From the IMG/VR virus record IMGVR_UViG_3300031994_000001, positions 119,799 through 183,798 of that record: a stretch of 64,000 nt of DNA; one strand, written 5' to 3'. The stretch comes from a virus (Duplodnaviria > Heunggongvirae > Uroviricota > Caudoviricetes). The notes under the pieces are model-generated. The model saw only the letters and a list, made by a program, of their open reading frames with translations, made no database searches and was not told the DNA's origin. Within the stretch, counting starts at the first letter, position 1. The number at the start of each line of letters is the position of its first letter. The position numbers and the translations under genes were made by a program. This document shows positions 21,816 through 61,136 of this stretch, piece by piece.

Positions 21816-22613
21816 TTACTTATAATATTCTATAACCACACCGTTATCCATAAGGCAATAGTCGTCATTGACTTCTTTCGGGTCAATCTTGCTGAAATCA
21901 TATCCGAGTGAAACGAGTGTGTCGTATGAAAGGTCTCCGCAATCTTCAGCATCTTCAAGGTATTCGGTGATTTCATCGTCTTCGCCGTCATAGTTGTCTT
22001 TCAGAAAGTTCACGAGCCAAGATTGTGCGCCGAAGTTCATTATGAGGTCTTGCACAAATACATCAACATTATCATACGAATGGCATATACCGTGGTCGAA
22101 ATACTCGTTGTTTGATGGATAATCGTCAACAATGTCCTTTGCTGTTTTTTCCGAAACCCCGCATTCTCTTGCTATGATTTTGATTTCGTCTCTTTTTACT
22201 TTCTCAATCAGTTTTTCGTTTCTTTTTGACAAAAGGGTTTTCACTATGGAATAATTCATTTCGTCAGAGACCTTGCCTTTGAATGCGTTGAACTGTTCTT
22301 CAGACAGCACGGTTTCATAATCCGAATATTTTGCATCCTCGTCATCATCGTCAAGCGACATAAGGAAATTCGCGCCCTCTATTTTTATTTCACCTTCACG
22401 GTTTGTGTCGCATCTTCCGTTTTCTATTCTCACATATTTTACAGCGTCTCTGTCGGGTTTTGCGATGTTTTTGAACGCAAACACATATCCTATGTATGAA
22501 TCATAATAGGATTTTGGTTTGTCGCAGTCACCGATATTCTTCAACTTTTCCTTTGATATGGGTTGAATGTTCAGTTTCTCGTTTATGTATTCGGAGGAAT
22601 TTAATATTTTCAT
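21816..22613 (-). CDS. leader-family protein 1 (MKILNSSEYINEKLNIQPISKEKL...), acidic C-domain of unknown function
   Basis: N-terminal conserved leader shared with at least 13 other genes. The ATG is at complement 22611-22613; the track ORF begins at an upstream TTG. Confidence 0.6.
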   Translation of the reverse strand: MKILNSSEYINEKLNIQPISKEKLKNIGDCDKPKSYYDSYIGYVFAFKNIAKPDRDAVKYVRIENGRCDTNREGEIKIEGANFLMSLDDDDEDAKYSDYETVLSEEQFNAFKGKVSDEMNYSIVKTLLSKRNEKLIEKVKRDEIKIIARECGVSEKTAKDIVDDYPSNNEYFDHGICHSYDNVDVFVQDLIMNFGAQSWLVNFLKDNYDGEDDEITEYLEDAEDCGDLSYDTLVSLGYDFSKIDPKEVNDDYCLMDNGVVIEYYK

Positions 22614-22619
22614 TGCCAA

Positions 22620-24130
22620 AAATCTTGTACTGTATATTTATAACGGGCTGTTTGCCTTATGTTCTGTTGTATATTTGTACCGTATAGAAAAATCTAATAA
22701 AAATTGTAATTATTAGTCCTTCTTTCTTGCTTCAACCTGCCACTACTTTTTAGGTTCATTTCTGAACGGTCATCCATAGTCGGGCAGTCCGCAAGCGTGA
22801 ATTCGGTGCTACGGACACCTATTGTTTTCAAGCCTTCACTCAAGATGTTCATTGCTGCGTTTATATCTCTGTCGTGGTGTTCACCACACATCGGGCAAGT
22901 CCATTCACGGTTGCTCAAAGTCAAGTCTTTATTGATGTAACCACACTTGTGACAAGTCTTACTGCTCGGATAGAAGCGGTCAACGAATACAACTTGTTTG
23001 CCATTCAACAACGCCTTGTCCGTCAGAACTTGTCTGAACCTATACAAGCCGATTTCTTGGATTGCTTTTGCAAGTTTGTGGTTCTTCAACATTCCCTGCA
23101 CGTTTAAGTCTTCCATACAAACCAAGTCGTAATCTTTAAGCAGACAATTCACGACATAGTAAATATATGCTTCCTTTCGGTTAGTCAATCGTTCAAACGC
23201 CTTCGCGAGTCTGATGCGCTGTTTGTTTCGGTTGTTCGAGCCTTTAACTTTCCTTGACAGTTGCTTTTGCAGTCTATTAACCTTTTGTTCCTGCTTCTTA
23301 AAGAAATGCTTGTTCTCAAAGACTTCACCATCGGATGTTATTACGAAGTCCTTTACACCGAGGTCTATGCCAACGCATTGATTGGTGTGTTTGAACTTTT
23401 GAAGTTCTTCCTGCGGGATATCAACAAGGATAGATAAGAAGTAGTTGCCGCTCTTGGTTCTCGAAACGGTGGCACTCCTTATCTTGTCCTTATAATCTTG
23501 AAGTCGTTTGAAATACAAGTCCGAACATCTGAAACGGATGTCCTTCAAATCTTGTGTGAGTGTTATCTTTCTTTCATTGAACGTGTTACGTTTGGAAATC
23601 GCTTCTGACGGGAACAACGCTGACTGCTTGTCTTTCTTTGACTTGAACTTCGGGAATCCGTTGTGCTGCTTGAAAAACTTTGAATAAGCGTCAAGCATCT
23701 GACGGATTGATTGCTTCATCACCTTTGTGTTCTGTTCCTGCAACCAAGCATAGTTCTCGTCTTTTAACAATGTTCCGTGAAACCACTTGGACAGTTCGGT
23801 CAATCCAAGATTGTTACCGTTTTCGTTGTATTCCTTTTGTTTTCGGTCAAGGCATTGGTTATAGACGAAGCGGTAGCAGCCAAGCACTTGTTTTAGTCTT
23901 GATTGCTGTTCCTTGTTCGGATATAACCTCACCTTGATTCCTCGCAACATATTCAATAATAGAATGTTCAATTAAAAAAGAGGCATTAAACTTGCGGCAG
24001 TGATGTGGAGAGTACCGACAAGGATAAAACCTCTGTATATATCTTATTCTATTTTGAAACGACTCTCCACTTTCGTTTCATTTTATTTATAAATAGTCTT
24101 AAACTACAATATATTTATACGAGTTTGTTT
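22620..24130 (-). mobile_element. IS200/IS605-family (IS1341-like) element carrying only tnpB; boundaries approximate
   Basis: tnpB with no adjacent Y1 tnpA. An inverted repeat GTGGAGAGT (24006-24014) / ACTCTCCAC (24067-24075) lies upstream of the tnpB start. The element sits between two leader-family paralogs. Confidence 0.4.
22694..23971 (-). CDS. tnpB: TnpB (IS605 OrfB-type RNA-guided nuclease family)
   Basis: N-terminal IKVRLYPNKEQQSRLKQVLGCYRFVYNQCL (OrfB HTH); C-terminal CHKCGYINKDLTLSNREWTCPMCGEHHDRDINAAMNI (zinc ribbon plus RuvC-III). Confidence 0.85.
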   Translation of the reverse strand: MNILLLNMLRGIKVRLYPNKEQQSRLKQVLGCYRFVYNQCLDRKQKEYNENGNNLGLTELSKWFHGTLLKDENYAWLQEQNTKVMKQSIRQMLDAYSKFFKQHNGFPKFKSKKDKQSALFPSEAISKRNTFNERKITLTQDLKDIRFRCSDLYFKRLQDYKDKIRSATVSRTKSGNYFLSILVDIPQEELQKFKHTNQCVGIDLGVKDFVITSDGEVFENKHFFKKQEQKVNRLQKQLSRKVKGSNNRNKQRIRLAKAFERLTNRKEAYIYYVVNCLLKDYDLVCMEDLNVQGMLKNHKLAKAIQEIGLYRFRQVLTDKALLNGKQVVFVDRFYPSSKTCHKCGYINKDLTLSNREWTCPMCGEHHDRDINAAMNILSEGLKTIGVRSTEFTLADCPTMDDRSEMNLKSSGRLKQERRTNNYNFY

Positions 24131-24161
24131 TTATAAGTTTTTTGTAGATTTTATTAGATTT

Positions 24162-24446
24162 TTAAGGAACTGTTATGTACCCAAAATCCGTAGAACCGCT
24201 TCTCATAAATGGGTCGTTGACATATATGGTGTTGAAATCCGACATTGATATATAATAGTATTCTCGGTATATGGTTTCACCTTTATTTTCTCGTTTGCAT
24301 ACAACAACGTCACCCGTTTTGAGTTTATCTTTCCAACCCAATCCTTCTTGTATTCGGACAAGGGAAGTTCTTTTCAGTCTATCTTTGGTTATAGGCTGAA
24401 TGTTCAGTTTCTCGTTTATATATTCCGATGAGGTCGCTATTTTCAT
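24162..24446 (-). CDS. leader-family protein 2 (95 aa; MKIATSSEYINEKLNIQPITKDRL...)
   Basis: Start at the internal Met carrying the leader; the upstream part of the track ORF overlaps the preceding gene. Confidence 0.5.
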   Translation of the reverse strand: MKIATSSEYINEKLNIQPITKDRLKRTSLVRIQEGLGWKDKLKTGDVVVCKRENKGETIYREYYYISMSDFNTIYVNDPFMRSGSTDFGYITVP

Positions 24447-24447
24447 A

Positions 24448-25245
24448 TTAGTATAATTTGAATTTTCCACCGATTCTCTTCGGTTTGCTTTTTGTTGATT
24501 TAAGCGATAGGTTGTTCGTGCAGTCGAAGTCCTTGCCCACTTTTTGCGGTGCGCCCACAAGGGATTTGAGTTCGTTGAACGAGCAGATGAATGAACCGCC
24601 CACTGCTCTCGGAGAGCCTTTCAAGTCTGATAAGTTGTTTCCCGAACAGTCGAATGTTCCGCCGACATATTGCGGTGCGCCTTCAAGGGTTACGAGGTTG
24701 TTGTCGCAGCAACTGAACACGTGTTTCACTTTTTGGGGTGCGCCTTTCAAATCAGTCAGACTGCATCCCTTGCAATAGAAGTTGCCGTTGATTTCACTTG
24801 GTGCGCCGACAAGCGAGGTTAGTGCCTTGCAGTTTGAACAGTTGAAGTTGCTTCCGACTTTCTTTGGCACACCTTCGAGTGATTCAAGCATAGGGTTGTT
24901 TTCGCAGCGAAACTCATATCCTACTTTTTTCGGTGCGCCTTTCAGCGATTTGAGATTTTTGTTGTCTGCGAAGAAGTTGCCCTTGACATAGCCGAAGTTT
25001 ATCTTGAACCCGTCACCGTCTTTTGCTATGATTTTATTGTCTATGAAAACGGAATGTTCCGAATCGTAGCATTTTGTAATCGGGTTGTATGTTAGTTTCT
25101 GTTTGGCGATGAACTCTTTTGCTTGCTCATCGGTCAGTCCCGCGTCCTCGTATTCCTTGTGTATGTATTTGCCGAGCCGTTCCTTTGAGACGGGTTCTAT
25201 CTCCAATTTCTCGCCTATGTATTCGTCTGCTTTGAGAATCTTCAT
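24448..25245 (-). CDS. leader-family protein 3 with about 8 x 22-aa LRR-type repeats (L.GAPQKVGG.F.CS.N.L.S)
   Basis: MKILKADEYIGEKLEIEPVSKERL..., then repeats such as GAPKKVGSNFNCSNCKALTSLVGAPSEINGNFYCKGCSLTDLKGAPQKV. Confidence 0.6.
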   Translation of the reverse strand: MKILKADEYIGEKLEIEPVSKERLGKYIHKEYEDAGLTDEQAKEFIAKQKLTYNPITKCYDSEHSVFIDNKIIAKDGDGFKINFGYVKGNFFADNKNLKSLKGAPKKVGYEFRCENNPMLESLEGVPKKVGSNFNCSNCKALTSLVGAPSEINGNFYCKGCSLTDLKGAPQKVKHVFSCCDNNLVTLEGAPQYVGGTFDCSGNNLSDLKGSPRAVGGSFICSFNELKSLVGAPQKVGKDFDCTNNLSLKSTKSKPKRIGGKFKLY

Positions 25246-25259: not shown

Positions 25260-26273
25260 TTAATTCTTGTCGTCTATTATTGCGATTTTGACCCAAGACG
25301 GTTTCTCTTTTGGTAAAATGAGATTCGGGTTTCCGCTGCACAAAAATATTCTGTCAACTTTCTGTGGTGCGCCTTCAAGCGTTATGAGTTTGTTATATCT
25401 GCAATCAAAATCGCCTTTTATTTTCTGTGGTGCGCCATTGAGTGATGTCAGCAAGTTGTTGTTGCAGTGGAAAGAACCAGTTTTCTTCGGTGCGCCTTCG
25501 AGTGACGATATGTAATTGTTGTCGCAACGAAAACTTGCACCCACTTTATGCGGTGCGCCTTTTAGACTTGTAAGTTTGTTGTTTGAACAATCAAAGTGTC
25601 TGTTCACTATATATGGTGCGCCTTCAAGGGATGTGAGTTCGTTATTTTTACATACATAGTTCTGTTCCACCGTATATGGGGAATGCTTCAGTGATGTTAA
25701 TTTGTTATTGCTACAAATAAAATATTCGCCAATTTCGTTTGGCGCATATTCAAGTGTGGTGAGTTTATTGTTACTGCAATCGAAGCCACCACCGACTTTT
25801 ATGGGTGCGCCTTTTAATGATGTTAGTTTGTTGTTATTGCAATTAAAATATCCGCTAACAATTTTCGGTGCGCCCTCAAGTGTGGTGAGTTCATTTTTGG
25901 CACAATCAAAATCCCCGTTGATTATTCCAAATTTTATTTTAAGTTTTCCGTCTTTTACAATTCGTTTGTCAACGGATACGGCACAATTTGCGTCATAGCA
26001 AATGGTGGCATTGTTGAAAACGAGTTTGTATTCTTTTATGTATGATGCTGTATCGAAGTCTATTATTTTTGATTCGGCGTGTTTTTTAAGTGTTTCTTTT
26101 GATATAGGTTTGATGTTTAGTTTTTCATCTACCCGTTTTTTGCGTTTGGCTTTATTTGTTTGGCTTGTACACGTGTTCTCTTTTTTTGTTTGTTCTATTC
26201 TGTCTTTGACATAACTGTCGAAGTCCATTACGCTGCCCTCGAATCTTCTTATTTTTTCTAATCTGCCATCCAT
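25260..26273 (-). CDS. leader-family protein 4 with about 10 LRR-type repeats; leader preceded by a ~45-aa basic extension
   Basis: ...KRVDEKLNIKPISKETLKKH..., then NNKLTSLKGAPIKVGGGFDCSNNKLTTLEYAPNEIGEYFICSNNKLTSL... Confidence 0.6.
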   Translation of the reverse strand: MDGRLEKIRRFEGSVMDFDSYVKDRIEQTKKENTCTSQTNKAKRKKRVDEKLNIKPISKETLKKHAESKIIDFDTASYIKEYKLVFNNATICYDANCAVSVDKRIVKDGKLKIKFGIINGDFDCAKNELTTLEGAPKIVSGYFNCNNNKLTSLKGAPIKVGGGFDCSNNKLTTLEYAPNEIGEYFICSNNKLTSLKHSPYTVEQNYVCKNNELTSLEGAPYIVNRHFDCSNNKLTSLKGAPHKVGASFRCDNNYISSLEGAPKKTGSFHCNNNLLTSLNGAPQKIKGDFDCRYNKLITLEGAPQKVDRIFLCSGNPNLILPKEKPSWVKIAIIDDKN

Positions 26274-28816: not shown

Positions 28817-29278
28817 ATGAAAATTACAATCGGTATGAATATATTGGATTACGACAATTTTGTGAGTGAAAAACTTGACATAAAACCCGTTTCAAAAAGC
28901 ACGCTTGTTTCTTTTTCCGATGGTTATAACTTATTCAAGTCATACCTTAAGCGGCTTATGGAAGATTTGAAAAACGACAGTGATTTGAAAGGTGAAATTG
29001 ACCGTCTTGATATGAGGGCATCATTTGGCGATGGCGATATAAGTGGACTGACATATTCAATTCCCAAAACAGAAAAGGAGTTTAAGGAGATGTGGGACGA
29101 CCTTAACGAGAGATTTGACCAAGGTGATTTTTATGATGACGGCGAAGATGGCGAGGTCTATATGTTTTATGACGTGTATTATAATGACACCGAAAGCAAT
29201 TCGGCGGATTATGTTGACCATTATTTGTATGTGTATTGCAACAGAGCAGAAAAAAGATACCGTTTTGATGAAGGCTAA
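28817..29278 (+). CDS. leader-family protein 5 (MKITIGMNILDYDNFVSEKLDIKPVSKSTL...); only member on the + strand in this region
   Basis: Leader motif followed by an acidic C-domain. Confidence 0.55.
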   Translation: MKITIGMNILDYDNFVSEKLDIKPVSKSTLVSFSDGYNLFKSYLKRLMEDLKNDSDLKGEIDRLDMRASFGDGDISGLTYSIPKTEKEFKEMWDDLNERFDQGDFYDDGEDGEVYMFYDVYYNDTESNSADYVDHYLYVYCNRAEKRYRFDEG

Positions 29279-29359: not shown

Positions 29360-29438
29360 GTTGATAACTTTGTTGATAACTTTTTTCAGAAAAAATGTTG
29401 AGTGTATAAAAAATTTTGTATTTTTGCAGCGTAATCAA
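29360..29438 (+). promoter_or_regulatory. about 80-nt promoter/operator element, copy 2 (GTTGATAACTTT x2 ... TATTTTTG)
   Basis: Near-identical to 15802-15880; TATTTTTG at 29419-29426; drives the HTH/alpha-CTD gene. Confidence 0.5.
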
Positions 29439-29451
29439 AAACGATACCGAT

Positions 29452-32851: not shown

Positions 32852-33706
32852 CTATTCTGTAAATTTCGGTTGATTTTCTGTATGCTGTTCAATTGGACTG
32901 CCTTTGAAAATATGATAATGCCTTTTTACCATTTCAACATTCCATTTTGAAATATTCCCATCAAACTTTGAGCGGCAAAACATTTCTTCCATATCATACA
33001 CATTTGATACGTTCCAATCGGATATATTGCCGTTGAATTTTGATTTGTAAAACATTGCACGCATATCTTTAACATTTTTCACATTCCAGTTGGATAAATC
33101 ACCATTAAAAATTGAATCTGTGAACATATAGGACATATCACCAACACGTTTAACATCCCATTCGGATATATCGCCGTTGAATTTACTCATATTAAACATA
33201 CCAGACATATTATAAACATTAGATACATCCCATTTTGATATGTCGTTATTGAAAATGGATTGGGTGAACATATTTTTCATATAATTCACTTTGCTGACAT
33301 TCCAATTAGATATATCGCCGTTAAATCTTGAAAAATGAAACATATGACTCATATTAGTTACATTTGACACATCCCATTTTGATATATCTCCATTGAAATC
33401 GCTACTTCCGAACATATAAGACATATCTTTCACGTTAGAAACATCCCATTCGGATATATTCCCCGTAAATTTGGTATGGTCGAATAGGTCACTCATATCG
33501 GTTATTTTTGAAGTGTCAATAATGTTCAAGTCACATTCATAGCCTTCATCTTTAATGATTTTCGATATGATTTTTTTCAATTCTTCCTTTGTCTGTGGAT
33601 GATATTTTCCGTCAGACATCAAGTTTTCTGTGTTGTAATCAGTTTGTGTTGTTGTGTACTTTTGAGCATTAACTGATAAATATTCGTTAATTTTGTAAAT
33701 TTTCAT
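32852..33706 (-). CDS. DUF285-type repeat protein (about 9 x 26-aa F.GDIS.WDVSNV..M..MF repeats) with a leader-like N-terminus MKIYKINEYL
   Basis: Repeats such as FNGDISKWDVSNVTNMSHMFHFSRFNGDISNWNVSKVNYMKNMF, the pattern seen in Mycoplasma/Listeria DUF285 surface proteins. Confidence 0.6.
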   Translation of the reverse strand: MKIYKINEYLSVNAQKYTTTQTDYNTENLMSDGKYHPQTKEELKKIISKIIKDEGYECDLNIIDTSKITDMSDLFDHTKFTGNISEWDVSNVKDMSYMFGSSDFNGDISKWDVSNVTNMSHMFHFSRFNGDISNWNVSKVNYMKNMFTQSIFNNDISKWDVSNVYNMSGMFNMSKFNGDISEWDVKRVGDMSYMFTDSIFNGDLSNWNVKNVKDMRAMFYKSKFNGNISDWNVSNVYDMEEMFCRSKFDGNISKWNVEMVKRHYHIFKGSPIEQHTENQPKFTE

Positions 33707-33739: not shown

Positions 33740-34792
33740 TTATATGTTACTCATCGCGGCGGCATCTGCTATTGATATGTCCAACACACCCTTCAGTTCC
33801 GTTCCGTGCAAAACATCGCCTCCGCAGTACAGATTCATAAGAGGCAGGCATTCTTTTACAAATTTCAACGTCTTGTTGATTATGTCTTGCGGGGTCTTGT
33901 ATGCGACTTTTCTCCAAGGTTTGCCCCCGCATTCTTTCAGCAAGTCTTCCGCGCTGCGCATAGCCATATATTTAAGGTTTGGCTTGTATGTGTTGTTTCC
34001 GCTTCTGTCAAACGGGGAAAGATACATAAGCGGTTTCGCAACACCGTCTATCTTACCGCTATACAAATCGAATCGGAATGCGTTGGTGCTGTGGGTTTCT
34101 ATTTTTTTGCCATTTATGCCTATAAAAAGGCTCACTGGTGATATTTTATTCCCGTTTCTTGTCATCTTCAATATCACATTGGCATCATTTATTTCGTTTT
34201 TAATGCCATTGATGATTTCGTCTTTGTAGTAGGTTTTCCAAGTGCTGTTCTGATTGTATGTTTTGTCAAGTTCGCTTTTTATTCTGTCGTTGAACATTCC
34301 CTTTTCGTCACATACGAGTTCGTTTATGGGTTTCAAGTTTTTCTCGTTAAACACTTTTTTTATTATGCCGAACATATTGTCGCCCATAAACAATTTGTGG
34401 TTTTCGCCAATATGTATTGACGGAATTGTCTCTGAAGGAGAGTACAATCCCATATATACAACGTAAAACTCTGTGGAGTATTCCATTTTTTTATAGAACC
34501 CGATTGTTCCATATATCCGAACAATTAAAGATGTGCTGCTTCCTGCTGTGACGGTTTTTATTTCAATGCCATATTGGTTTCTCTCTATGTTTTTTTGTAT
34601 CTTCGCATAGGCATCTGTGATGAAATCCGCATATTCCGCTGTATTGTGGTTAAACTCACTTTTTTTAAACCATTTATCCTCATCTTCTTTTGCGGACAAC
34701 GATACACTGTTAAGCCTGCCTTTTGAAACGGGTTGGATGTTTAGTTTCTCTGATACAGAGTTAAACTCATTAAAATTGAGTATCTTTGTCAT
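33740..34792 (-). CDS. leader-family protein 7 (MTKILNFNEFNSVSEKLNIQPVSKGRL...), 350 aa, C-domain unknown
   Basis: Leader motif; no other domain recognised. Confidence 0.55.
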   Translation of the reverse strand: MTKILNFNEFNSVSEKLNIQPVSKGRLNSVSLSAKEDEDKWFKKSEFNHNTAEYADFITDAYAKIQKNIERNQYGIEIKTVTAGSSTSLIVRIYGTIGFYKKMEYSTEFYVVYMGLYSPSETIPSIHIGENHKLFMGDNMFGIIKKVFNEKNLKPINELVCDEKGMFNDRIKSELDKTYNQNSTWKTYYKDEIINGIKNEINDANVILKMTRNGNKISPVSLFIGINGKKIETHSTNAFRFDLYSGKIDGVAKPLMYLSPFDRSGNNTYKPNLKYMAMRSAEDLLKECGGKPWRKVAYKTPQDIINKTLKFVKECLPLMNLYCGGDVLHGTELKGVLDISIADAAAMSNI

Positions 34793-34865: not shown

Positions 34866-35321
34866 TCATTTCTTATTGGTACTGTATTTGTTGAAACTTC
34901 TTACACTTTTTATTTGGATTATTTTGCCGCTGTCGTTTATTGCGAAAAGATAGTGTCGTTTATTGAATATATCTGAAATATTCGGTTCTTTGAAAAATCG
35001 CAACGCATCATATTTCAGATTTATTGAAAACACCACATCTTCTTGGGATGATTTATCTGCCAATCTTTTCTTTAATTCCTCAAGCGAATGATACAATCCA
35101 ATAAAACTGTTGTTATCATTATCATATTGTGGTAGTGGCTTTTCGCTAACGACATAATCACCGCTCCAAATTTCACTATTTTCCGCATTTGGAGACCCGT
35201 GGTCTTGATATAGATATAATTTCACCATTTCATCAACGGCTTGTTTCAACCTATCCTTTGAAACGGGTTGTATATCAAGTTTCTCGGAAATAAATTCCTT
35301 TGCGTTTAATATTTTTGTCAT
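34866..35321 (-). CDS. leader-family protein 8 (MTKILNAKEFISEKLDIQPVSKDRL...), 151 aa
   Basis: Leader motif. Confidence 0.55.
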   Translation of the reverse strand: MTKILNAKEFISEKLDIQPVSKDRLKQAVDEMVKLYLYQDHGSPNAENSEIWSGDYVVSEKPLPQYDNDNNSFIGLYHSLEELKKRLADKSSQEDVVFSINLKYDALRFFKEPNISDIFNKRHYLFAINDSGKIIQIKSVRSFNKYSTNKK

Positions 35322-35326: not shown

Positions 35327-37534
35327 TTATTGTTTTTCAAATCCGTTGCTTTTGAGGAATTTTTTGATTGTAGGCAGTTCATACAACTGCTCTGGACCGA
35401 TGTTGTACTTAATCAATTCCTCCCTTGCGCCGTCATCCATTTTGCGTATTTCCTCATATCCCGTGAGGTATGAACTGTCAAGCGAAGTCGCGTAGTTCTC
35501 GTTCCAAAACACGATACGCATAGCCCTAATGATTCCAATGAGGGCATCGTCCATTTTGGATTCGGTCATCTTCATAATCTTTTTCACGAGTTCGTCAGTT
35601 GACATAGTGAACAAGTGCTTCAGTATGATGATTTTCTTCGAGATGTAGAACATAATGTTCGGCTTCGGCTTCGGCGATTTGTCAAGGGAATTGTAGATTG
35701 CCATACCCTCGTCATACTTGCCCGCGCCGTGGAGACCGTATAGAAACAGATTCAACCCCGTCTTTATTCCGCTGTCCTTTCTCGCAACGTGGGTGTTCAC
35801 TTCGTGGCGTTTGAGTGAGTCAATGTCAACCTTGCTGAAGTTGCTGTGGGCGTTTATGAGGAATTTCTTGTATGTCTTGACGCTCATTCTCGGAACGAGG
35901 TTGTCATCAAGTTCGACTTCCCAATTATACCCTTTTTTCTTTATTTCTTCCTCCATCTCCTTTTTAGCCTCTTTCGGGGTTATGGTGCGCTTGTAGTCTT
36001 TGTCTTTTTTCTCCAGGTCGTGTATGTCGTCCACGGGGTTTTCCTTGATGTATTTCAATGCCTTGTGATAAAGGTAGTTTGACGGACGGTAGAAGTTCTT
36101 TGGAAGTTTGCGCTTGCCGTTCACGTAGTCGTGTATGTATTCTATGTTCTTTTTCACGATTTCGAGTTTGTCAAGGTAGAATTTTGTGAGGTAGCAGGCT
36201 TGGAACTCGCGGAAATCGTCAATGAGTGATTCCACGTCATCCATAAACGTCTTGTATTGTTTTTCGTCACTCCAAGCGGATTTTTCGTATTCGATTTTAT
36301 CGAATGTCAAGTCGTAGTCATCGTCCTCGCGCAAGTGCTTTTTATACCTGCTTATGAGTTCGCTCATATTGGTTATGTTTTGGAAGTGGGATTTTTCCTT
36401 GTGGTATTTGTCCATTATCTTCCCGTAACGCTTGTCGTATTCGATAAGTTTCTCCTTGTTCTTGTCGGATAATTTTATTTTCTCGTCTATGTAGTCGTTC
36501 ACTGATTCAAGCACGAACACGTTACCGTATTCACTGCGAACCAAGTCACGCTGCTGAAGTTCGTTGTCTGTGAGGTCGTCAAACGGAACAACCCTAACGT
36601 TTCTGTTGTTGTCGTCATAGCAGATATAGTTGAGGTCGGTCTTTATGTCGGTTATGCCGATAACACCGCTCGGACTTTTCACTACATTGAACGAAAGCAT
36701 ACCTCCGACACGCTTTGCGGTCTCGTTACCTTTTTGGCGGGCGACACAGTTTCCAAGTGAATATGCGCAGAGAGTCCTGCCTCTGTCGCCAACCCATCTG
36801 ACGGGTTGCACAACGTGCGGGTGTGTTCCGATGATTATGTTCACTCCGAGTTGGGAGAGATATTCGGATATGTGACGCTGCTCCTTGTTGATGTCGCCGA
36901 GCATATATTCAGTACCCCAATGCAGGGAGACTATCACGACATCGGCGTTCTTGCGGGCGTACATAATATCCCTTACACCGAACTGCTCGTCCCAAATGTT
37001 GATGCCGCTTACCCGTTTCTTGCGCATAGTGTTCACCCGTGTGGTGTATGAAACGAAAGCGAACACGATTCCGTTCTTTGTAAAAAACGATACCCTTGAT
37101 TCGGGGCTGTTTTCATCAAGACCCGAACACACAGCCCCGCTTGAATACCAAAACTTTCTGTTCTGTTCCAAGCCGTCCAATCCGTTGTCGATGACGTGGT
37201 TGTTGGCAAGTGAGATGAGGTTGAACCCTGCGTCAAGTATGGCATCGCCGAAATTGGTGTCCGCAGCGAACAGAGCAGTACCCATTTCACCCAATTCTCC
37301 GCCGTGCTTGCTGTCGCATATAGGGGTTTCGGCGTTGCAGTATCTTATGTCGTATTGCTGTATCTTCGGTTTTAGTGCGCTGAACACATCGCTGTAATCA
37401 TACCCGTTTTCCGCAGCGTCATTCTGTATGTCCGTATGGGCGAGCATATCGCCGACAGCCACGAAACTGACTATGGCGTTTTCGGAGTTTGCTGATTCAT
37501 TTACGAATTTGTCGTATGTCTTAATGTAGTTCAT
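35327..37534 (-). CDS. CapA/PGA_cap-like metallophosphoesterase domain (N-terminal ~380 aa) fused to a ~350-aa C-terminal domain of unknown function; N-terminus MNYIKTYDKFVNES weakly resembles the leader
   Basis: AVGDMLAHTDI...ADTNFGDAILDAGFNLISLANNHVIDNG...VSLHWGTEYMLGDINKEQR...IIGTHPHVVQP matches CapA-family motifs (SLHWGTEY, GHHPHV). Confidence 0.6.
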   Translation of the reverse strand: MNYIKTYDKFVNESANSENAIVSFVAVGDMLAHTDIQNDAAENGYDYSDVFSALKPKIQQYDIRYCNAETPICDSKHGGELGEMGTALFAADTNFGDAILDAGFNLISLANNHVIDNGLDGLEQNRKFWYSSGAVCSGLDENSPESRVSFFTKNGIVFAFVSYTTRVNTMRKKRVSGINIWDEQFGVRDIMYARKNADVVIVSLHWGTEYMLGDINKEQRHISEYLSQLGVNIIIGTHPHVVQPVRWVGDRGRTLCAYSLGNCVARQKGNETAKRVGGMLSFNVVKSPSGVIGITDIKTDLNYICYDDNNRNVRVVPFDDLTDNELQQRDLVRSEYGNVFVLESVNDYIDEKIKLSDKNKEKLIEYDKRYGKIMDKYHKEKSHFQNITNMSELISRYKKHLREDDDYDLTFDKIEYEKSAWSDEKQYKTFMDDVESLIDDFREFQACYLTKFYLDKLEIVKKNIEYIHDYVNGKRKLPKNFYRPSNYLYHKALKYIKENPVDDIHDLEKKDKDYKRTITPKEAKKEMEEEIKKKGYNWEVELDDNLVPRMSVKTYKKFLINAHSNFSKVDIDSLKRHEVNTHVARKDSGIKTGLNLFLYGLHGAGKYDEGMAIYNSLDKSPKPKPNIMFYISKKIIILKHLFTMSTDELVKKIMKMTESKMDDALIGIIRAMRIVFWNENYATSLDSSYLTGYEEIRKMDDGAREELIKYNIGPEQLYELPTIKKFLKSNGFEKQ

Positions 37535-49433: not shown

Positions 49434-49434
49434 A

Positions 49435-52985: not shown

Positions 52986-53243
52986 ATGAAGATACTTGAC
53001 ACAAAACAATTAGACGAAAAACTCAAAATAGAACCCGTTTCAAAGACAAAACTCAATGGGTTGAAAACAAAAATTGAGGAAGACAAGGATTTGATGGGTT
53101 TGCTTGAAAAAACAATATCCAAAATCGGTGACTATGTTGATATTGACGGTGAAAGATGGGATGAAGAATGCGTCAAAGGATTGAAAAAAGGTTTTGATAT
53201 GCTTTTGGACTTTTATGTCAAAGTGAAACGAGACGAAGAATAA
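52986..53243 (+). CDS. leader-family protein 10 (MKILDTKQLDEKLKIEPVSKTKL...), 85 aa
   Basis: Leader motif; preceded by GTATAAATATACATATATAAAAG. Confidence 0.5.
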   Translation: MKILDTKQLDEKLKIEPVSKTKLNGLKTKIEEDKDLMGLLEKTISKIGDYVDIDGERWDEECVKGLKKGFDMLLDFYVKVKRDEE

Positions 53244-53253: not shown

Positions 53254-53661
53254 ATGGCAAAAATCAGAAAAATTGACGAACTTGATGCAGTTTCTGAAAA
53301 GATTAGCATACAACCCGTTACGAGAGGTGAGTTGGCTAATTTGACTTACGGCAAGGGCAGATACATAATCACCGACATTTGGGTCTTGGAAAAGGATAAA
53401 GACGATGACGGTTCGTATCTTGAGTTTAAAATGTCAATCGGTGATGATTTGAAGAAATTGGTTGCCGAAACCTTGCTGAAATTTTGCGATGTCGTTGTTG
53501 ACACAAGCAAACTCTCTTATGTCGAATATCCCGACAATGAGGTTTGGGCGAATTATACCGACAAGGATGTCGCAGTTTATCAATGCAAGGTTGATATTTT
53601 ACGGAATATGACAACAAGGGATTACGAAAGACTTGGAATCCAAGACGATTTGACAAGATGA
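53254..53661 (+). CDS. leader-family protein 11 (MAKIRKIDELDAVSEKISIQPVTRGEL...), 135 aa
   Basis: Diverged leader motif. Confidence 0.5.
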   Translation: MAKIRKIDELDAVSEKISIQPVTRGELANLTYGKGRYIITDIWVLEKDKDDDGSYLEFKMSIGDDLKKLVAETLLKFCDVVVDTSKLSYVEYPDNEVWANYTDKDVAVYQCKVDILRNMTTRDYERLGIQDDLTR

Positions 53662-56553: not shown

Positions 56554-56826
56554 TTATGCAAGTTTTTTAATTTTCATTGAAAAGTCTTTCCACCAAGTGT
56601 GGAACGGAATCGCATCCCCGATACCTTTCACGGTTTCGTTGTACTTTTTCTCAACGTCTTTTTCTATGTCGTTGATAGTGTCTGAAACCTTTTTGTATTT
56701 CTTCGGGTCTTTCTCCATAAGTTCGGCTGCTTTGTCGAACACGAATGCGTTTAACTTCGTCATTCTGTAATTGAGTTTGACAGCACTAATAAAACCCTCT
56801 CCGATAAAATCGCTGTATGTTTTCAT
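56554..56826 (-). CDS. small protein starting MKTYSDFIGE (T4 capsid-targeting-sequence-like N-terminus)
   Basis: N-terminal decapeptide matches 7 of 10 positions of MKTYQEFIAE, which is the T4 internal protein III capsid-targeting sequence as I recall it. Confidence 0.5.
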   Translation of the reverse strand: MKTYSDFIGEGFISAVKLNYRMTKLNAFVFDKAAELMEKDPKKYKKVSDTINDIEKDVEKKYNETVKGIGDAIPFHTWWKDFSMKIKKLA

Positions 56827-56831: not shown

Positions 56832-57185
56832 TTATTTGTTATAAAAGTACACTGCCTCGTACCAATCGCCGCCGTCATCGGAACTTGTTTGCGTGACGTG
56901 GTGCAGTTTGTAGCCCAATTCGGTTATGAGTTTTTTAGAGAATCCGTGTTCGTGCTTCCAATTACCCTCTATCTGTACGCAGACATACCGTGGGTCTTGC
57001 GGCGTTTCTATCCAAACTTCCGCGCTGACACCATTGTTCTCAAGGGTCTTTTGAATCCTATCAACGTCTTTGTCGCTAATCATTCTGCGTTCAATTTCGT
57101 TTTGGATATTGTCCAACCGTTCTTTCGACACGGGTTGGATGTCAAGTTTTTCCTTGATGAATTTGTCTGCTTTGAGAATTTCCAT
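56832..57185 (-). CDS. leader-family protein 12 (MEILKADKFIKEKLDIQPVSKERL...), 117 aa
   Basis: Leader motif. Confidence 0.55.
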   Translation of the reverse strand: MEILKADKFIKEKLDIQPVSKERLDNIQNEIERRMISDKDVDRIQKTLENNGVSAEVWIETPQDPRYVCVQIEGNWKHEHGFSKKLITELGYKLHHVTQTSSDDGGDWYEAVYFYNK

Positions 57186-58092: not shown

Positions 58093-58521
58093 TTATAATT
58101 CGATAATCAAACGGGTGTTCTTGTTACGCAAAACCCTTGCGTTTTCAGTAAGTTTGTAAACATCACACAGAACATCCAACGTTGTCAGATTAAGGAAATT
58201 GTCGCCTTTTTCAAAAGGAATGGCGGATTGCAGATAGACCTGCTTTTCTATCGGTATGCCAAGTTTTTGAAACCTGCTTCTTGTGTACGCGATGTTTTTC
58301 AGAGTGTTGTTCACCCTGCGTAACTCGCTTTCGGTCATTTTGACCTTTATTGTCTGTGTGTACACAGTGCCTTGTTTATCCCATACTTTGTTGTAGTTGA
58401 CAGACAAAATATTCAGTCTCGGCTCGTTGATTTCGTTTTTCAGTTTGCCAAGTCTGTCCTTTGTTACGGGCTTTATGTCCAATTTTTCGGAGACAAACTC
58501 CTCTATGTTCAATACTTTCAT
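58093..58521 (-). CDS. leader-family protein 13 (MKVLNIEEFVSEKLDIKPVTKDRL...), 142 aa
   Basis: Leader motif. Confidence 0.55.
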   Translation of the reverse strand: MKVLNIEEFVSEKLDIKPVTKDRLGKLKNEINEPRLNILSVNYNKVWDKQGTVYTQTIKVKMTESELRRVNNTLKNIAYTRSRFQKLGIPIEKQVYLQSAIPFEKGDNFLNLTTLDVLCDVYKLTENARVLRNKNTRLIIEL

Positions 58522-58525: not shown

Positions 58526-58960
58526 TTATTCTATATATTTTACTGTGTCAAAATGGCAGGTGTCTTTCGCCACTTCGCATCTTTGTTGCAATTCAATGGA
58601 ATCCTTTTTGTCATAGCAGTAAATGTAAAGTTTCTTGCCGACAATCTTGTTTCCGAATTTTTTCATATTTTTGTCTATGGCTTTGTAATCGTTTTTCTCG
58701 TGCATAATGCTGTCATAGTCATATATCGCTTTCCAAAAATCGTTGCTGTATGTTGTGTCCTCAAATTCTTTCACATTTTTCATATTCGTGAAAGTGAACT
58801 CGTATTTTGGACACATCATAAAATCGGTGTCATCGTCTTTGAAAGTCGGAAGTGAAGCAAGGATTCTGCCTTGACTGTCCAACACGCTTTCAAACGGTGT
58901 TTTTGTCGCAACAGTCTTTGCGCTTTCTGCTATGAATTGTTCAAATTTGTATATTTCCAT
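58526..58960 (-). CDS. leader-variant protein (MEIYKFEQFIAESAK...), 144 aa
   Basis: N-terminus resembles both the family leader (MKILKFEQYINEKL) and the T4 capsid-targeting sequence (MKTYQEFIAE) but lacks the NIKPVSKDRL part. Confidence 0.5.
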   Translation of the reverse strand: MEIYKFEQFIAESAKTVATKTPFESVLDSQGRILASLPTFKDDDTDFMMCPKYEFTFTNMKNVKEFEDTTYSNDFWKAIYDYDSIMHEKNDYKAIDKNMKKFGNKIVGKKLYIYCYDKKDSIELQQRCEVAKDTCHFDTVKYIE

Positions 58961-58967: not shown

Positions 58968-59609
58968 TTATTTTTTAATTTTTCCTTCAATCCAATTCTG
59001 TTTATTTATCGGTAGAACAAGGTTTGGATTATTACCGCAATATAAATTATCGCCGATTTTCTGCGGTGCGCCTTCAATGGTTGTAAGTTTGTTATTACGG
59101 CAATAAAAACCACCTCCGACTTCTTGCGGTGCGCCTTTAAGGGTTGTCAAATAGTTGTATCTGCAAATAAAATCATCACCGACTTCCTTTGGTGCGCCTT
59201 CAAGGGTTGTCAGTTTATTATTACTGCAATTAAAATCACCACCTACTTTCTGCGGTGCGCCTTTAAGGGTTTTCAGTTTATTACCACTGCAATCAAAATC
59301 CCCGCCGACTTTCTGCGGTGCGCCTTCAAGGGTTATCAGTTTGTTATTAAAGCAGCCAAAATACCCTTTAACGTGTCCGAATCTTATTTTAAGTTTACCG
59401 TCAAGCACTATGTCGTTTGAAATCCTAACGTCCCCGTCACAATCATAACTTCTTGTTGATGGATTCCATACGAGATTGTTGACTTCTATGAATAATTTCG
59501 TTTTATCATCAACTTCGGGTTCTTTACACAATTCAGCAAGTCTATCTTTTGAAACGGGCTTAATGTTAAGTTTCTCGTTTATATATTGTTCGAACTTGAG
59601 TATTTTCAT
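58968..59609 (-). CDS. leader-family protein 15 with about 7 LRR-type repeats
   Basis: MKILKFEQYINEKLNIKPVSKDRL..., then GAPQKVGGDFDCSGNKLKTLKGAPQKVGGDFNCSNNKLTTLEGAPKEVGDDFICRYNYLTTLKGAPQEVGGGFYC. Confidence 0.6.
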   Translation of the reverse strand: MKILKFEQYINEKLNIKPVSKDRLAELCKEPEVDDKTKLFIEVNNLVWNPSTRSYDCDGDVRISNDIVLDGKLKIRFGHVKGYFGCFNNKLITLEGAPQKVGGDFDCSGNKLKTLKGAPQKVGGDFNCSNNKLTTLEGAPKEVGDDFICRYNYLTTLKGAPQEVGGGFYCRNNKLTTIEGAPQKIGDNLYCGNNPNLVLPINKQNWIEGKIKK

Positions 59610-59616
59610 AACATAT

Positions 59617-60321
59617 TTATTGTTTATCACAAGTAAGAATGCCTTGTATCCAATTTGGTTTTTCTTTTGGCATTGTTAAATTTGGATTGTTTTTGCATAC
59701 AAAATGAAAAACGCCTTTTATTACACAATCTATCGAATGCAACATATTATCACTGCAATCAAAATTGCCTCCTACATATTTCGGTGCGCCTTCAAGCGTT
59801 GCAAGATTGTTATGGCTGCAATTAAAATTCCCGCCCACTTCTTTCGGTGCGCCCTTTAGCGTTTTTAATTTGTTTTGGCTGCAATCAAACACATACGGTA
59901 TTTCTTTGGGCGCACCTTCAAGGGTTTTCAACATATTCTTACTACAAATAAAAGAGTCATCAATTTCTTGTGGGGCAAAGCAAAGGGATGTCAGTTCGTT
60001 GTCCGAACAATCAAAGAAACCCATTACTTTTAACGGTGCGCCTTCAAGGGATTTCAGATTGTTATTGGAACAGTTGAAGTTTCCATTTATAACTCCGAAT
60101 TTTATCGGGAATGAATCCAACCCTATGTCGTTTATATAAACATTTCCGTGGCAATCATAGCGCATTGTTTGCTTATTGAACACAAGTTCGTGACGTTTGA
60201 TGAAATTTTTTCTGTATTCATTTAAGTATAGTTCACCGAAACGATTATCAAGTCTGTCTTTTCTGACGGGCTTAATGTTAAGTTTCTCGTTTATGTATTG
60301 TTCTGTTTTAAGTATTTCCAT
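59617..60321 (-). CDS. leader-family protein 16 with LRR-type repeats
   Basis: MEILKTEQYINEKLNIKPVRKDRL..., then repeats. Confidence 0.6.
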   Translation of the reverse strand: MEILKTEQYINEKLNIKPVRKDRLDNRFGELYLNEYRKNFIKRHELVFNKQTMRYDCHGNVYINDIGLDSFPIKFGVINGNFNCSNNNLKSLEGAPLKVMGFFDCSDNELTSLCFAPQEIDDSFICSKNMLKTLEGAPKEIPYVFDCSQNKLKTLKGAPKEVGGNFNCSHNNLATLEGAPKYVGGNFDCSDNMLHSIDCVIKGVFHFVCKNNPNLTMPKEKPNWIQGILTCDKQ

Positions 60322-60323
60322 AG

Positions 60324-61136
60324 TTAAAATATTATATATTTGTCTTTTACCCAATTTGGTTTTTCTCTTGGAGGATTCAGTTTCGGGTTGTTATTGCAAT
60401 AAAAATCACCAACTCTTTGTGGTGCGCCGTAAAATGATTCAAGTTCATTGTTTGAACAATCAAGTTTGTATTTTACAACTTTTGGCGAACCCACCAATGA
60501 TTTCAGTTTGTTGTGCGATATGTCTATTTTGTCGCAATTCGGAATCCCGACAAATGACTCTATGTTATTGTCTTTGCAATTTATAAAACTGGTGCTGATA
60601 CCCGTTCCGATTTTTTGCGGTGCGCCTTCAAATGTTTTTAGTTTGTTGTGTTCACAATGCAAATCCCCACCGATTTCTTTCGGCGCGCCTTTAAGGGTTT
60701 CAAGTTCATTGTTATTACACCAAAGACCCCATTTGATTTCCTGCGGTGCGCCTTTTAGTGTTTTTAGTTTGTTGTAACCACAATAAAAAGAATCTCCTAC
60801 TTTTTGTGGTGCGCCCTCAAGTGATGTAAGTTCGTTATATCTGCAATCAAAATAGCCACCGACTTCCTGCGGTGCGCCTTTTAGTGATGTCAGTTTGTTG
60901 CCCGCACAGATAAAATTACCATTGACCACACCAAATCTAACGGGAAATTCAGTAAGCCCCTTTTCTATCAAATTAACATTTCCTTTACAATCATACAACA
61001 TAGTTTCTTTGTTATAAACAAGGTTATACTCTTTTATGAATGTTTTCATTTTTGTGGTTTGAATTAACCTGCTTTTTGAAACGGGCTTAATGTTAAGTTT
61101 CTCGTTTATATATTGTTTCGAGTTCAGTATTTCCAT
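60324..61136 (-). CDS. leader-family protein 17 with about 9 LRR-type repeats
   Basis: MEILNSKQYINEKLNIKPVSKSRL..., then repeats. Confidence 0.6.
   Translation of the reverse strand: MEILNSKQYINEKLNIKPVSKSRLIQTTKMKTFIKEYNLVYNKETMLYDCKGNVNLIEKGLTEFPVRFGVVNGNFICAGNKLTSLKGAPQEVGGYFDCRYNELTSLEGAPQKVGDSFYCGYNKLKTLKGAPQEIKWGLWCNNNELETLKGAPKEIGGDLHCEHNKLKTFEGAPQKIGTGISTSFINCKDNNIESFVGIPNCDKIDISHNKLKSLVGSPKVVKYKLDCSNNELESFYGAPQRVGDFYCNNNPKLNPPREKPNWVKDKYIIF

Follow-up and report, generated by a model that had tools for sequence, protein, structure and literature searches.

A leader peptide with a T4-like first half recurs on many proteins of a rumen jumbo phage

In phage T4, the internal proteins IPI, IPII and IPIII as well as Alt carry a capsid-targeting sequence (Mullaney & Black 1996; reviewed in PMC3012670 and PMC9026906), of which residues 4 and 7 serve targeting and residues 8 and 10 processing, an Asp at position 10 stopping cleavage (PMC9026906). 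The cleavage motif of the protease gp21 is L/I-x-E. At the variable internal-protein loci of T-even phages, related phages have different proteins that start with sequences like the capsid-targeting one, which is interpreted as an arms race against host restriction systems (Repoila et al. 1994, as cited in PMC9026906). In phiKZ, 201phi2-1 and SPN3US, many head proteins are processed after Glu by a gp21-related protease, the paralogues gp53 and gp54 (34% identical overall) have the same first 15 residues, which end in cleavage motifs, and the propeptides were inferred to work like the T4 targeting sequence (PMC5694885). Here we describe a leader from a rumen phage that we read, at a probability of about one half, as a greatly expanded signal for head loading and cleavage of the T4 type.

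Leader genes and their cargoes

The window, meaning the whole 64-kb stretch of DNA analysed, comes from a rumen contig of 248 kb that belongs to a jumbo phage related to T4, with LR756500, Lak, PAU and PTm1 as its nearest relatives in GenBank. An earlier, sequence-only reading had listed 14 genes starting with a common leader, and all 14 ORFs are present with the leader in each. An HMM trained on 13 leaders and run against the six-frame translation of the window recovered those 13 (E = 1e-13 to 1e-19) and the leader of 25260..26273 (E = 1e-7, HMM positions 10-28), with no other window match at E < 0.3. The core Φ-x-E-K-L-x-I-x-P-Φ-(S/T)-K is invariant in the 14 genes, and the four genes previously called weaker variants have only the T4-like first half (MKTYSDFIGE, MEIYKFEQFIAES, MNYIKTYDKFVNES, MKIYKINEYLSVN). 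With about 12.2 kb in all, the 18 genes make up 19% of the window. The proposed start consensus holds in part, as two genes begin MTKIL and one MAKIRK, and in the LRR gene 25260..26273 (minus strand, 337 aa) the core VDEKLNIKPISKETL is found at residues 49-64, preceded by a 48-aa basic N-terminal extension. The start placed at 28817 is likelier at 28835 (MNILDYDNF...), as in the JGI call.

The cargoes had been described as unrelated, which is not so for five of them, paralogous 22-aa LRR proteins. Besides 25260..26273, the minus strand encodes a leader followed by a 22-aa LRR array at 24448..25245 (265 aa) and the LRR genes 58968..59609 (213 aa), 59617..60321 (234 aa) and 60324..61136 (270 aa), all three with leader HMM matches. 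Other minus-strand leader genes are 21816..22613 (265 aa; MKILNSSEYINEKLNIQPISKEKL, then an acidic cargo of pI 4.3 with no family match), 33740..34792 (350 aa; MTKILNFNEFNSVSEKLNIQPVSKGRL, then an unknown cargo), 34866..35321 (151 aa; leader HMM match), 56832..57185 (117 aa) and 58093..58521 (142 aa; basic cargo, pI 9.7). On the plus strand are 28835..29278 (147 aa; MNILDYDNFVSEKLDIKPVSKSTL, then an acidic cargo of pI 4.2), 52986..53243 (85 aa; acidic cargo) and 53254..53661 (135 aa), whose leader is divergent (MAKIRKIDELDAVSEKISIQPVTRGEL). The 94-aa gene 24162..24446 (minus strand) is the cut-short first module of a two-module protein, ending where a TnpB element begins; its orthologue P0018 has 331 aa, and L002 and L003 carry the 331-aa gene without TnpB. 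The cargo module of 34866..35321 reappears as module two of the fused ORF P0014 and as module one of P0027.

The four genes with a first half only are all on the minus strand: 56554..56826 (90 aa; MKTYSDFIGE followed by G, second half absent), 58526..58960 (144 aa; MEIYKFEQFIAE followed by S), 35327..37534 (735 aa; MNYIKTYDKFVNE followed by S) and 32852..33706 (284 aa; degenerate MKIYKINEYLSVN). The earlier domain calls for the last two were sound: 35327..37534 is a CapA-like protein (PGA_cap, E = 3e-52) that also has a MATCAP/DUF1704 metallopeptidase-like domain, and 32852..33706 is a DUF285-repeat protein (E = 3e-75), a cargo that stands behind a full leader in relatives.

Recognisable cargo families are LRR, DUF285 and Fib_succ_major, which in bacteria typify surface and adhesion proteins, not known internal proteins, and this does not favour head loading; that such cargoes would also suit the virion surface had gone unnoticed. 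It is possible, if doubtful, that the leader is an anchor docking diverse binding modules on the virion exterior at a common capsid, neck or tail site, for instance by a strand added to an existing sheet. The result would be a mixed adhesin coat targeting host surfaces or rumen particles. The cargo families named above are of the expected type, but numerous cargoes are small (60-120 residues), acidic or basic, and lack repeat or fibre character, and in the AlphaFold models the leader is not followed by a coiled-coil or trimerisation element.

A conserved peptide with a T4-like first half

The leader is not hydrophobic and consists of a first half, M-K-I-L-x4-Y/F-I/V-x-E, and a second half, K-L-x-I-x-P-Φ-S/T-K-x-x-L. 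P1 is Glu in 150/150 copies and Asp in 0, P3 is I/V/L/F/M in 142/150 (95%), and Asn is the most frequent residue at P2. The position is N-terminal in 112 of 149 copies, with the Glu mostly at residue 11-13, and the 37 internal copies keep Φ-x-E-K-L...P and have lost the MKIL part. Two features had been missed, namely that the conserved part reaches 12 residues past the putative cleavage site and that the core also recurs within multi-module ORFs. The best-conserved residues follow the putative cut, which is not expected of a simple removable propeptide.

In pairwise comparisons, identical leader residues had differing codons in 52% of cases (Leu used five or six codons, Arg three), and the longest nucleotide tract shared by any pair had a median of 8 nt in the leader versus 9 nt elsewhere in the genes; the leader is therefore conserved as a peptide, not as DNA. 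These values count against the suggestion, made previously as an alternative, that the leader is chiefly a handle for cassette swapping or amplification by recombination or duplication, its peptide having little function. Such a DNA handle needs no peptide conservation, and we regard it as very improbable as a general cause, even though the leader genes stand in tandem arrays with spacers of 1-14 nt, gene content at leader loci varies among close relatives, modules of differing types are joined exactly at the core, and the neighbouring LRR genes 58968, 59617 and 60324 have identical leader tracts of 29-44 nt.

The N-terminal leader and an internal linker copy are predicted to be disordered or flexible, as both have pLDDT values of 39-68 beside confident domains in AlphaFold models. 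In 58968..59609, the LRR solenoid exceeds a pLDDT of 94, and the leader (62-68) is modelled as a short helix at residues 6-13, then coil.

The T4 IPIII start given in the sequence-only reading, MKTYQEFIAE, is correct and is that of both IPII and IPIII (followed by A). MKTYSDFIGE of 56554..56826 matches it at 7/10 positions, an identity of at least 7/10 being reached by 3/3758 N-termini versus 0/13398 internal-Met decoys. Counterparts of the mapped T4 positions in the leader are L4, Y/F9, I/V10 and E12, and in related contigs similar N-termini are found on scaffold-like coiled-coil proteins beside gp21-type proteases. The resemblance to T4 spans only about 10 residues. The second leader half is new, and recurs as a predicted disordered linker joining modules of fused ORFs.

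These properties fit head loading, in which the first half would be the counterpart of the T4 capsid-targeting sequence; by attaching to the scaffolding core, it would bring the tagged protein inside as the prohead shell is built. Cleavage behind the invariant Glu of Φ-x-E by a prohead protease of the gp21 family would follow and leave the second half as the new N-terminus of each mature protein; alternatively, the second half may extend the recognition site of the protease on the primed side. In fusions of neighbouring genes, the same protease might cut at the internal core in the disordered linker and free the modules in the head, polyprotein-like. A surface anchor could account for the best-conserved KLxIxPΦS/TK staying on the protein, but does not explain why P1 is always Glu and never Asp, why P3 is hydrophobic, why the first half resembles T4 and why Φ-x-E is kept at internal junctions.

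LR756500, Lak, PAU and PTm1, the closest relatives in GenBank, encode proteases of the gp21 family (PF03420). A search of the window and its 28 kb of flanks found no prohead protease gene, and neither did one reaching 10 kb around the portal and capsid genes in leader-bearing relatives, which counts against head loading. The earlier proposal of capsid targeting and processing is partly supported and is the best-supported explanation, with a prohead protease located in the GenBank relatives and not in the regions searched of this phage and of leader-bearing relatives.

The unlocated protease would suit another reading, in which the leader marks its proteins for some shared partner in the infected cell (a chaperone, a modifying enzyme, a degradation or timing system, or a phage compartment) and its T4 likeness is convergent or coincidental. 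A conserved core well past the protease site, internal positions and an exposed, flexible peptide as predicted here, like short linear recognition motifs, are also compatible with such a tag. We consider it unlikely, more so than the surface anchor, since no candidate partner was found, the strict N-terminal position (112/149) and the match to mapped T4 residues point to a head-loading system, and the late structural gene neighbourhood suits virion proteins better.

Promoter-like motifs, gene neighbourhood and distribution

The motif TATAAATA, the T4 late-promoter consensus, has 22 matches versus 2.5 expected, and is 17-32 nt upstream of the ATG for most genes it precedes. A copy at 62721..62728 (minus strand) heads a run starting with 61141-62688 (515 aa), continuing with five leader or half-leader genes and then the T4 gp13-like neck gene (PF26809; 57201..58067, same strand), immediately downstream of which is 56832..57185. 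In T4, the position of the five genes is that of the whisker gene wac. Equivalent motifs are found at 22635 (21 nt upstream of 21816..22613), 26291, 28810, 33737, 37642, 52958 and 58090, and 25260..26273 and 52986..53243 are each first behind one. The motif heads leader-gene runs, tail-fibre and neck genes, and in relatives also portal and capsid genes. Leader-bearing relatives have a small sigma-70-region-2-like protein and T4-type portal (PF07230), gp23-like capsid and gp18-like sheath genes, each of the three with leader genes directly downstream. Two Φ-N-E sites are conserved in the N-terminal region of their capsid protein, Asn being the most frequent P2 residue of the leader as well. As for replication, the claimed gp32-like SSB is encoded at 26790-27731 (PF08804); the claimed gp44-like clamp loader was not confirmed, its sole candidate gene starting at about 63960 and running past the window end.

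A location among structural genes behind the same promoter motif, including the five genes immediately upstream of the gp13-like gene, would also be expected of a surface anchor. The cultured relatives have notable head fibres (PTm1, PTm5) or mop-like tail fibres (PAU) (PMC7824862), elaborate structures that favour an anchor over head loading. However, PAU, PTm1 and PTm5 gave no leader match among the 50,697 GenBank phages searched, so their fibres are not anchored by this leader.

Among 185,579 genomes of bacteria and archaea and the 50,697 GenBank phages, the leader is nearly missing. About 200 protein clusters bear it, and a 192-kb relative has at least 65 copies, far exceeding any known set of internal head proteins, an excess that does not favour head loading.

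We favour head loading because of the T4-signal resemblance, the invariant Φ-x-Glu, the T4-type head, neck and sheath genes, the shared late-type promoter motifs, the predicted leader disorder, the gp21-family proteases in relatives, the peptide-level selection, and the internal copies that keep Φ-x-E-K-L...P and lose MKIL. Since the same peptide, which resembles the T4 head-loading signal, is found on dozens of unrelated proteins, the virion of this T4-related giant phage of the rumen probably has an unusually large set of proteins inside. If so, the family would be a very large and fast-changing internal repertoire able to be ejected into the cell with the DNA, where some members might act against host defences.

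Comparison with described systems

The earlier statement that no equivalent has been described was wrong, as the T4 internal proteins are one. Both systems have a short N-terminal peptide common to proteins that are otherwise unrelated, with an L/I-x-E prohead protease site at the end of the pattern M-K-x-(Y/L)-...-F/Y-I-x-E, diverse cargo with rapid turnover among relatives, and portal, capsid, neck and sheath genes of T4 type. The leader described here is longer (about 25 aa versus 10-19), its most conserved part follows the putative cut, and it is more numerous, with 18 genes in this 64-kb window and a minimum of 65 copies in a relative, versus about 4-8 in T4. Unlike in T4, copies also lie within fused multi-module ORFs, cargoes have LRR, DUF285 and Fib_succ_major repeats, and packaging and cleavage are predicted. 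The T-even variable loci similarly have different proteins with capsid-targeting-like starts at the same loci among relatives; the scale here is an order of magnitude larger and the conservation at peptide level only.

The ejection and inner-body paralogues of phiKZ, 201phi2-1 and SPN3US also belong to jumbo phages and include a pair, gp53 and gp54, with a common N-terminus that ends in cleavage motifs. Most of their propeptides exceed 100 residues, the motif is S/A/G-x-E, paralogues are few per family, and no one leader is universal across dozens of unrelated cargoes. Encapsulin cargo-loading peptides are likewise short and portable and bring diverse cargo into an HK97-fold shell, but they are usually C-terminal, uncleaved, non-phage and unrelated in sequence, making the analogy a functional one only. 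Finally, as a comparison for the surface-anchor reading, N-terminal anchors of phage receptor-binding proteins and the adenovirus fibre tail combine conserved N-terminal attachment with exchangeable C-terminal binding domains. Known phage anchors are folded domains of at least 100 residues on trimeric fibres, whereas the leader has about 25 residues, is predicted to be flexible and is borne by small, monomer-like domains.

Leader genes, their phage and their spread

The leader genes reported from the sequence alone were borne out by ORF lists and translations. The leader is a ~25-aa N-terminal peptide with a T4-like first half (M-K-I-L...Φ-x-E, where Φ is hydrophobic) and a second half reading K-L-x-I-x-P-Φ-(S/T)-K; we call the stretch from Φ-x-E to the last Lys the core. 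An HMM built from 13 leaders and run against all stop-to-stop segments of the window recovered those 13 at E = 1e-13 to 1e-19 and matched the 14th gene (25260-26273) at E = 1e-7, through the second half of the leader only, at residues 49-64. No other window segment fell below E = 0.3. With residue numbers taken from the first aligned sequence, E12, K13, I16, P18 and L24 were invariant. Four half-leader genes (32852-33706, 35327-37534, 56554-56826 and 58526-58960) carry no more of the pattern than its first 10-13 residues. The 18 genes cover ~12.2 kb in total and are arranged in runs with spacers of 1-14 nt.

A 1238-aa window protein shares 37% identity with the uncultured huge phage LR756500.1 and 25-32% with other uncultured huge phages and with phages PAU (Sphingomonas), PTm1, PTm5 and pT24 (Tenacibaculum), MA9V (Chryseobacterium) and MaF61 (Flavobacterium); Lak phages were among the 31 matching records. 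Identifiable window genes include the gp32-like gene (PF08804) already named in the sequence-only reading, a T4 gp13-like neck protein gene (PF26809), collagen-like tail-fibre genes, a run of DNA methyltransferase genes and a flotillin-like gene. From these relatives and genes, we conclude that the window belongs to a T4-related jumbo phage, probably of Bacteroidota, which falls in the PAU/Lak/LR756500 group and not in the phiKZ group. The gp32-like protein lies on a 248,464-bp JGI contig (3300028805|Ga0247608_10000043) and recurs in further metagenome assemblies, including ENA records STEW18 and PRJEB21624, which we take to be cattle-rumen data.

At the nucleotide level the window matched GenBank phages only over 147 bp of a TnpB gene, where it shares 82% identity with Lak phages of Prevotella. 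This IS200/IS605-type gene (22694-24161; PF12323, PF01385, PF07282) occupies the place of the remainder of a 331-aa two-module leader gene found in two relatives (L002, L003), of which window gene 24162-24446 is a 94-aa stump. More TnpB copies were seen close to the portal gene of another relative (L148). The two collagen-like (Gly-X-Y) genes at 39207-40778 and 45347-47836 gave strong PHROG tail-fibre matches and adjoin a gene for a 1103-aa protein of unknown function. At least five tandem DNA methyltransferase genes span 47949-52949: N6_N4_Mtase genes start at 47949, 48690, 49411 and 52161 (Pfam or JGI gene call), the gene at 51346 is read as the same family, and an ORF at 50306-51349 sits amid them. 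Lying between replication and leader genes, 31241-32776 encodes a Band_7/flotillin-like protein of 511 aa whose N-terminus has a membrane segment; the protein is kept in relatives L004-L006. The gene at 29416-30261 encodes a protein with HTH_17 and RNA polymerase alpha C-terminal domains, and its homologue in L148 (9018-9824) adjoins the portal gene.

Searching 50,697 GenBank phage records by tblastn, PAU, PTm1 and PTm5 included, returned zero matches to the consensus leader at E <= 10, and in IMG/VR the pattern EKLxI[QKE]P[VI][ST] was confirmed in four contigs only, with many copies apiece. An earlier profile search of a 5.8-billion-protein set gave only 10 short fragments, and an exhaustive leader search of 1.84 billion representatives was used instead; it yielded 200 clusters at E <= 0.001, with the match beginning at residue 1-4 in nearly all of them. 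One 192-kb relative carries 65 distinct leader cores in 80 kb of its sequence, and two or more further copies flank the window. Among 185,579 bacterial and archaeal genomes, one per species, the leader was confirmed only on two contigs (1.3 and 2.0 kb) of one Rikenellaceae MAG (JAZOQL010000020.1 and JAZOQL010000130.1, loci L341 and L342), which offer either a weak hint of the host or a binning artefact.

Conservation of the peptide and the proteins behind it

Across the 14 window copies, codons for identical residues differ in 52%, with Leu written by 5 or 6 codons and Arg by 3. For pairs of leaders, the longest stretch of identical nucleotides has a median of 8 nt versus 9 nt in the rest of the genes, and only the neighbouring LRR genes 58968, 59617 and 60324 have common leader tracts as long as 29-44 nt. 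Since codons differ and shared tracts are no longer than in the rest of the genes, leader conservation is due to selection on the peptide. These data rule out a DNA-level repeat or RNA element as its cause, and the codon data contradict, in its pure form, the alternative that the leader is a recombination handle. Pooling N-terminal and internal copies from the window and from loci L002-L040, L048, L049 and L148, we observed a codon skew in the core: AAA makes up 116 of the 124 Lys codons at the first Lys position, TCA or ACA encodes the Ser/Thr in 92 of 120 copies with either residue there, and the Pro shuns CCG (11% vs 36% background). This skew may be ordinary 5'-end codon bias.

The sequence-only reading had set against its own proposal the case of a secretion or lipid-anchor signal of host-type proteins. 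Maximum 15-residue N-terminal hydropathy is <=0.65 in the 14 core-bearing genes and in three of the four half-leader genes (1.49 in the fourth, 35327-37534), and with such low values the leader is not a secretion signal. Cys is absent from the leader, and a host-type Sec or lipoprotein signal peptide is ruled out by these two features together with the near-absence of the leader from the species genomes.

Counting 150 copies from 126 representative proteins, internal copies included, we found Glu before K-L (P1 of the putative cut) in all 150 and Asp in none; P3 is I, V, L, F or M in 142 and Ala in 2, and P2 is Asn in 78 and Ser in 41. Most N-terminal copies (n = 112) have the Glu at residue 11-13. 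A further 37 core copies lie inside ORFs, two of them <=35 residues from annotated starts that may be mis-called. These internal copies are junctions between modules of the same or different types (GDVV + GDVV, GDVV + Fib_succ_major, LRR + LRR, 34866-like module + LRR); they keep Φ-x-E-K-L-x-I-x-P-Φ-S/T-K without the M-K-I-L part, and no conservation is seen further upstream. The AlphaFold model of P0018, the two-module orthologue of 24162-24446, has two beta-rich domains (block-mean pLDDT ~67-93; model pTM 0.45), with pLDDT below 50 in both the N-terminal leader and the internal core at residues 171-188. In the model of LRR protein 58968-59609 the solenoid exceeds pLDDT 94 and the leader reaches 62-68, which rules out that the leader is part of the LRR fold. 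The contrast between low-confidence leader or core and confident domains predicts that the leader is a portable, exposed and flexible element outside any cargo fold.

Cargoes, the protein parts after the leader, are varied. Pfam assigned 14 of the 126 representatives to DUF285, 11 to Fib_succ_major and a few to LRR, most being without a family match; window cargoes range in pI from 4.2 to 9.7. The commonest module is a beta-rich 'GWK..LKTGDVV' domain of ~150 residues, which had no structural match; Foldseek searches of PDB and BFVD with the two-module model returned only spurious double-beta-barrel matches (TM-scores < 0.2). The cargoes of 21816, 33740, 34866, 56832, 58093 and others had zero matches in Pfam, PHROGs and PDB sequence searches. 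A MafB19/APOBEC-like deaminase in one family member was a weak match that could not be traced by motif search and was set aside. Half-leader gene 35327-37534 encodes an unusual fusion, with a CapA-like PGA_cap phosphoesterase and a MATCAP/DUF1704 metallopeptidase-like part behind a T4-like N-terminus. Leader and cargo do not depend on each other, as Vibrio phages have the LRR domain without the leader.

A leader that docks its cargo on the virion exterior, as a fibre or decoration anchor, would suit cargo families that resemble adhesins and the fibre-rich particles of cultured relatives; it would then be a new kind of short peptide anchor for the decoration of large capsids. However, the fibre-bearing relatives PAU, PTm1 and PTm5 lack the leader by tblastn, and in the models globular or solenoid domains follow it directly, with no oligomerising or fibrous region between; both points lower the standing of surface anchoring, which moreover leaves the Glu and P3 rules unexplained.

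Resemblance to T4 capsid-targeting sequences and the virion-gene setting

The sequence-only reading had given MKTYQEFIAE as the T4 capsid-targeting sequence of IPIII, and the T4 record bears this out: IPII and IPIII both begin MKTYQEFIAE/A (slash, cut), and IPI begins MKTFKEFTSTTTPVSTITE/A. Mature IPI* has 76 residues (PMC3012670), in agreement with cleavage after residue 19 of IPI. In IPIII, residues 4 and 7 serve targeting and residues 8 and 10 processing, which is blocked by Asp at 10 (PMC9026906); the prohead protease gp21 cleaves after L/I-x-E. Allowing a two-residue insertion relative to T4, the leader counterparts of these mapped positions are L4 and Y/F9, then I/V10 and E12. Judged from sequence, the leader thus follows the propeptide pattern of the T4 capsid-targeting sequence, in both targeting and processing residues, as well as the prohead-protease motif (L/I)-x-E with a strict Glu.

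The two T4-like variants noticed earlier were confirmed, 56554 beginning MKTYSDFIGE (7/10 identical to T4) and 58526 beginning MEIYKFEQFIAE, and both are nearer T4 than the rest of the leader family. Identity to the T4 sequence of at least 7/10 was found in 3 of 3758 N-termini vs 0 of 13398 internal-Met decoys in all DNA analysed. A looser T4-like pattern occurs at the N-termini of 4.3% of ORFs in the window, 8.6% in leader-bearing loci and 0.25% in other related T4-like contigs, where 0/9886 internal-Met decoys carry it; in these other contigs such N-termini start coiled-coil, scaffold-like proteins as well as small proteins near a portal-protease-capsid module. By comparison, phiKZ-type inner-body and ejection proteins have propeptides longer than 100 residues, which a gp175-type protease cleaves at S/A/G-x-E; the ~25-aa leader differs from these in length and in its hydrophobic P3, where Ala is rare.

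Leader-gene arrays in the leader-bearing relatives directly follow portal, capsid and sheath genes. The portal is T4-type (E = 9e-21 to T4 gp20; PF07230), and the other two genes are gp23-like and gp18-like. Two Φ-N-E or Φ-x-E sites (~residues 6-8 and 49-51) are conserved within the first 52 residues of the gp23-like capsid protein; both persist across the wider clade with P3 and P2 varying, as expected for gp21-type maturation. Leader-bearing relatives therefore carry the genes from which a T4-type prohead would be predicted, with a gp20 portal and a gp23 capsid protein having a putatively cleavable N-terminal segment; on the window contig itself, the gp13-like neck protein is the only such virion gene seen.

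LR756500.1 and more distant relatives have, between portal and capsid genes, a gene for a gp21-family (PF03420) protease; its product carries GELDHP and ISSRAAG motifs and is joined to a scaffold-like part. Homologues occur in Lak, PAU (gp151) and PTm1. Neither a phmmer search with T4 gp21 nor an HMM made from 11 related proteases matched anything in the window or in the leader-clade loci searched, L148 not among them. No prohead protease was found in the window, in 28 kb of its flanks (L044, L046; with the window, all but ~156 kb of the contig) or <=10 kb from the portal or capsid genes of leader-bearing relatives; for L148, Pfam listings revealed none <=10 kb from the portal. Two IMG/VR scans with protease queries returned none from leader-bearing contigs among the best 80 of ~400-480 matches. 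Portal, protease and capsid genes no longer adjoin in the leader clade. In a leader-bearing relative (locus L048, 7413-9392) and in LR756500.1 (locus L150, 1427-3040 and 9667-11466), the capsid gene is flanked by large ORFs in which 'ERYGVE..SQ' motifs recur and which we read as homing-endonuclease-like. Near the portal gene of the leader-bearing relative L148, a GmrSD_N-domain protein and an EcoRI-type methylase are encoded at 7435-8970; GmrSD is the enzyme family inhibited by T4 IPI*.

The octamer TATAAATA, which is the T4 late-promoter consensus, occurs 22 times in the window vs 2.5 expected, a ~9-fold excess (for example at 3365, 26356, 45327, 56092 and 63649); on both strands it usually stands 17-32 nt upstream of an ATG. 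It stands ahead of each leader-gene run, as well as tail-fibre gene 45347, the neck gene and the genes for the 1238-aa and 515-aa proteins. In relatives it lies 28 nt before the portal gene, ~90-140 nt before the capsid gene and also before leader arrays. T4 late promoters consist of an 8-bp TATA box (PMC2988020). Leader-bearing relatives encode homologues (E ~1e-13) of a small sigma-70-region-2-like protein that is annotated in phage MA9V-2. Given the promoter motif and this sigma-like homologue, leader genes appear to be co-regulated with virion genes.

A putative head-loading signal compared with known systems

We put the probability that the leader is a T4-type head-loading and cleavage signal at about one half. 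Such a signal would account for the N-terminal position, first-half sequence, invariant Glu and hydrophobic P3 of the leader, and for the sites kept where modules join. Predicted disorder, the late-type promoter and the presence of T4-type virion genes would likewise be explained. What it does not account for is that conservation is highest in the 12 residues following the putative cut. This invariant 12-residue segment and its use at junctions are not accounted for by T4 biology and point to an extra loading, processing or ejection step. In a bolder version, which we consider unlikely, the leader would be a two-step delivery tag: its T4-like half would load the prohead and be cut off, fused ORFs would be polyproteins cut in the head at the same motif, and one phage would pack and inject at least 60 different proteins. 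That would amount to programmable protein delivery far bigger than any phage system described.

If the leader is a head-loading signal, the T4 signal would be ancient, widespread in T4-related phages far beyond those of enterobacteria, and scalable to dozens of cargoes per genome. The ~200 clusters would then form a catalogue of candidate injected counter-defence or host-takeover proteins of rumen and gut Bacteroidota phages, a group for which, to our knowledge, almost no such functions are known. The leader could also serve to load foreign proteins into such phages.

The claim that no equivalent had been described did not hold, as T-even phages have varied proteins whose only common feature is the capsid-targeting sequence (PMC3012670, PMC9026906), and phage SPN3US has processed paralogues with conserved N-termini (PMC5694885). 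Relative to these systems, four points are new. One is scale, with 18 genes in 64 kb, 65 or more copies per genome and ~200 clusters. Another is the division of the leader into two parts, the core after the putative cleavage point being invariant. The others are that this core also joins modules within multi-module ORFs, and the types of cargo and the host group.
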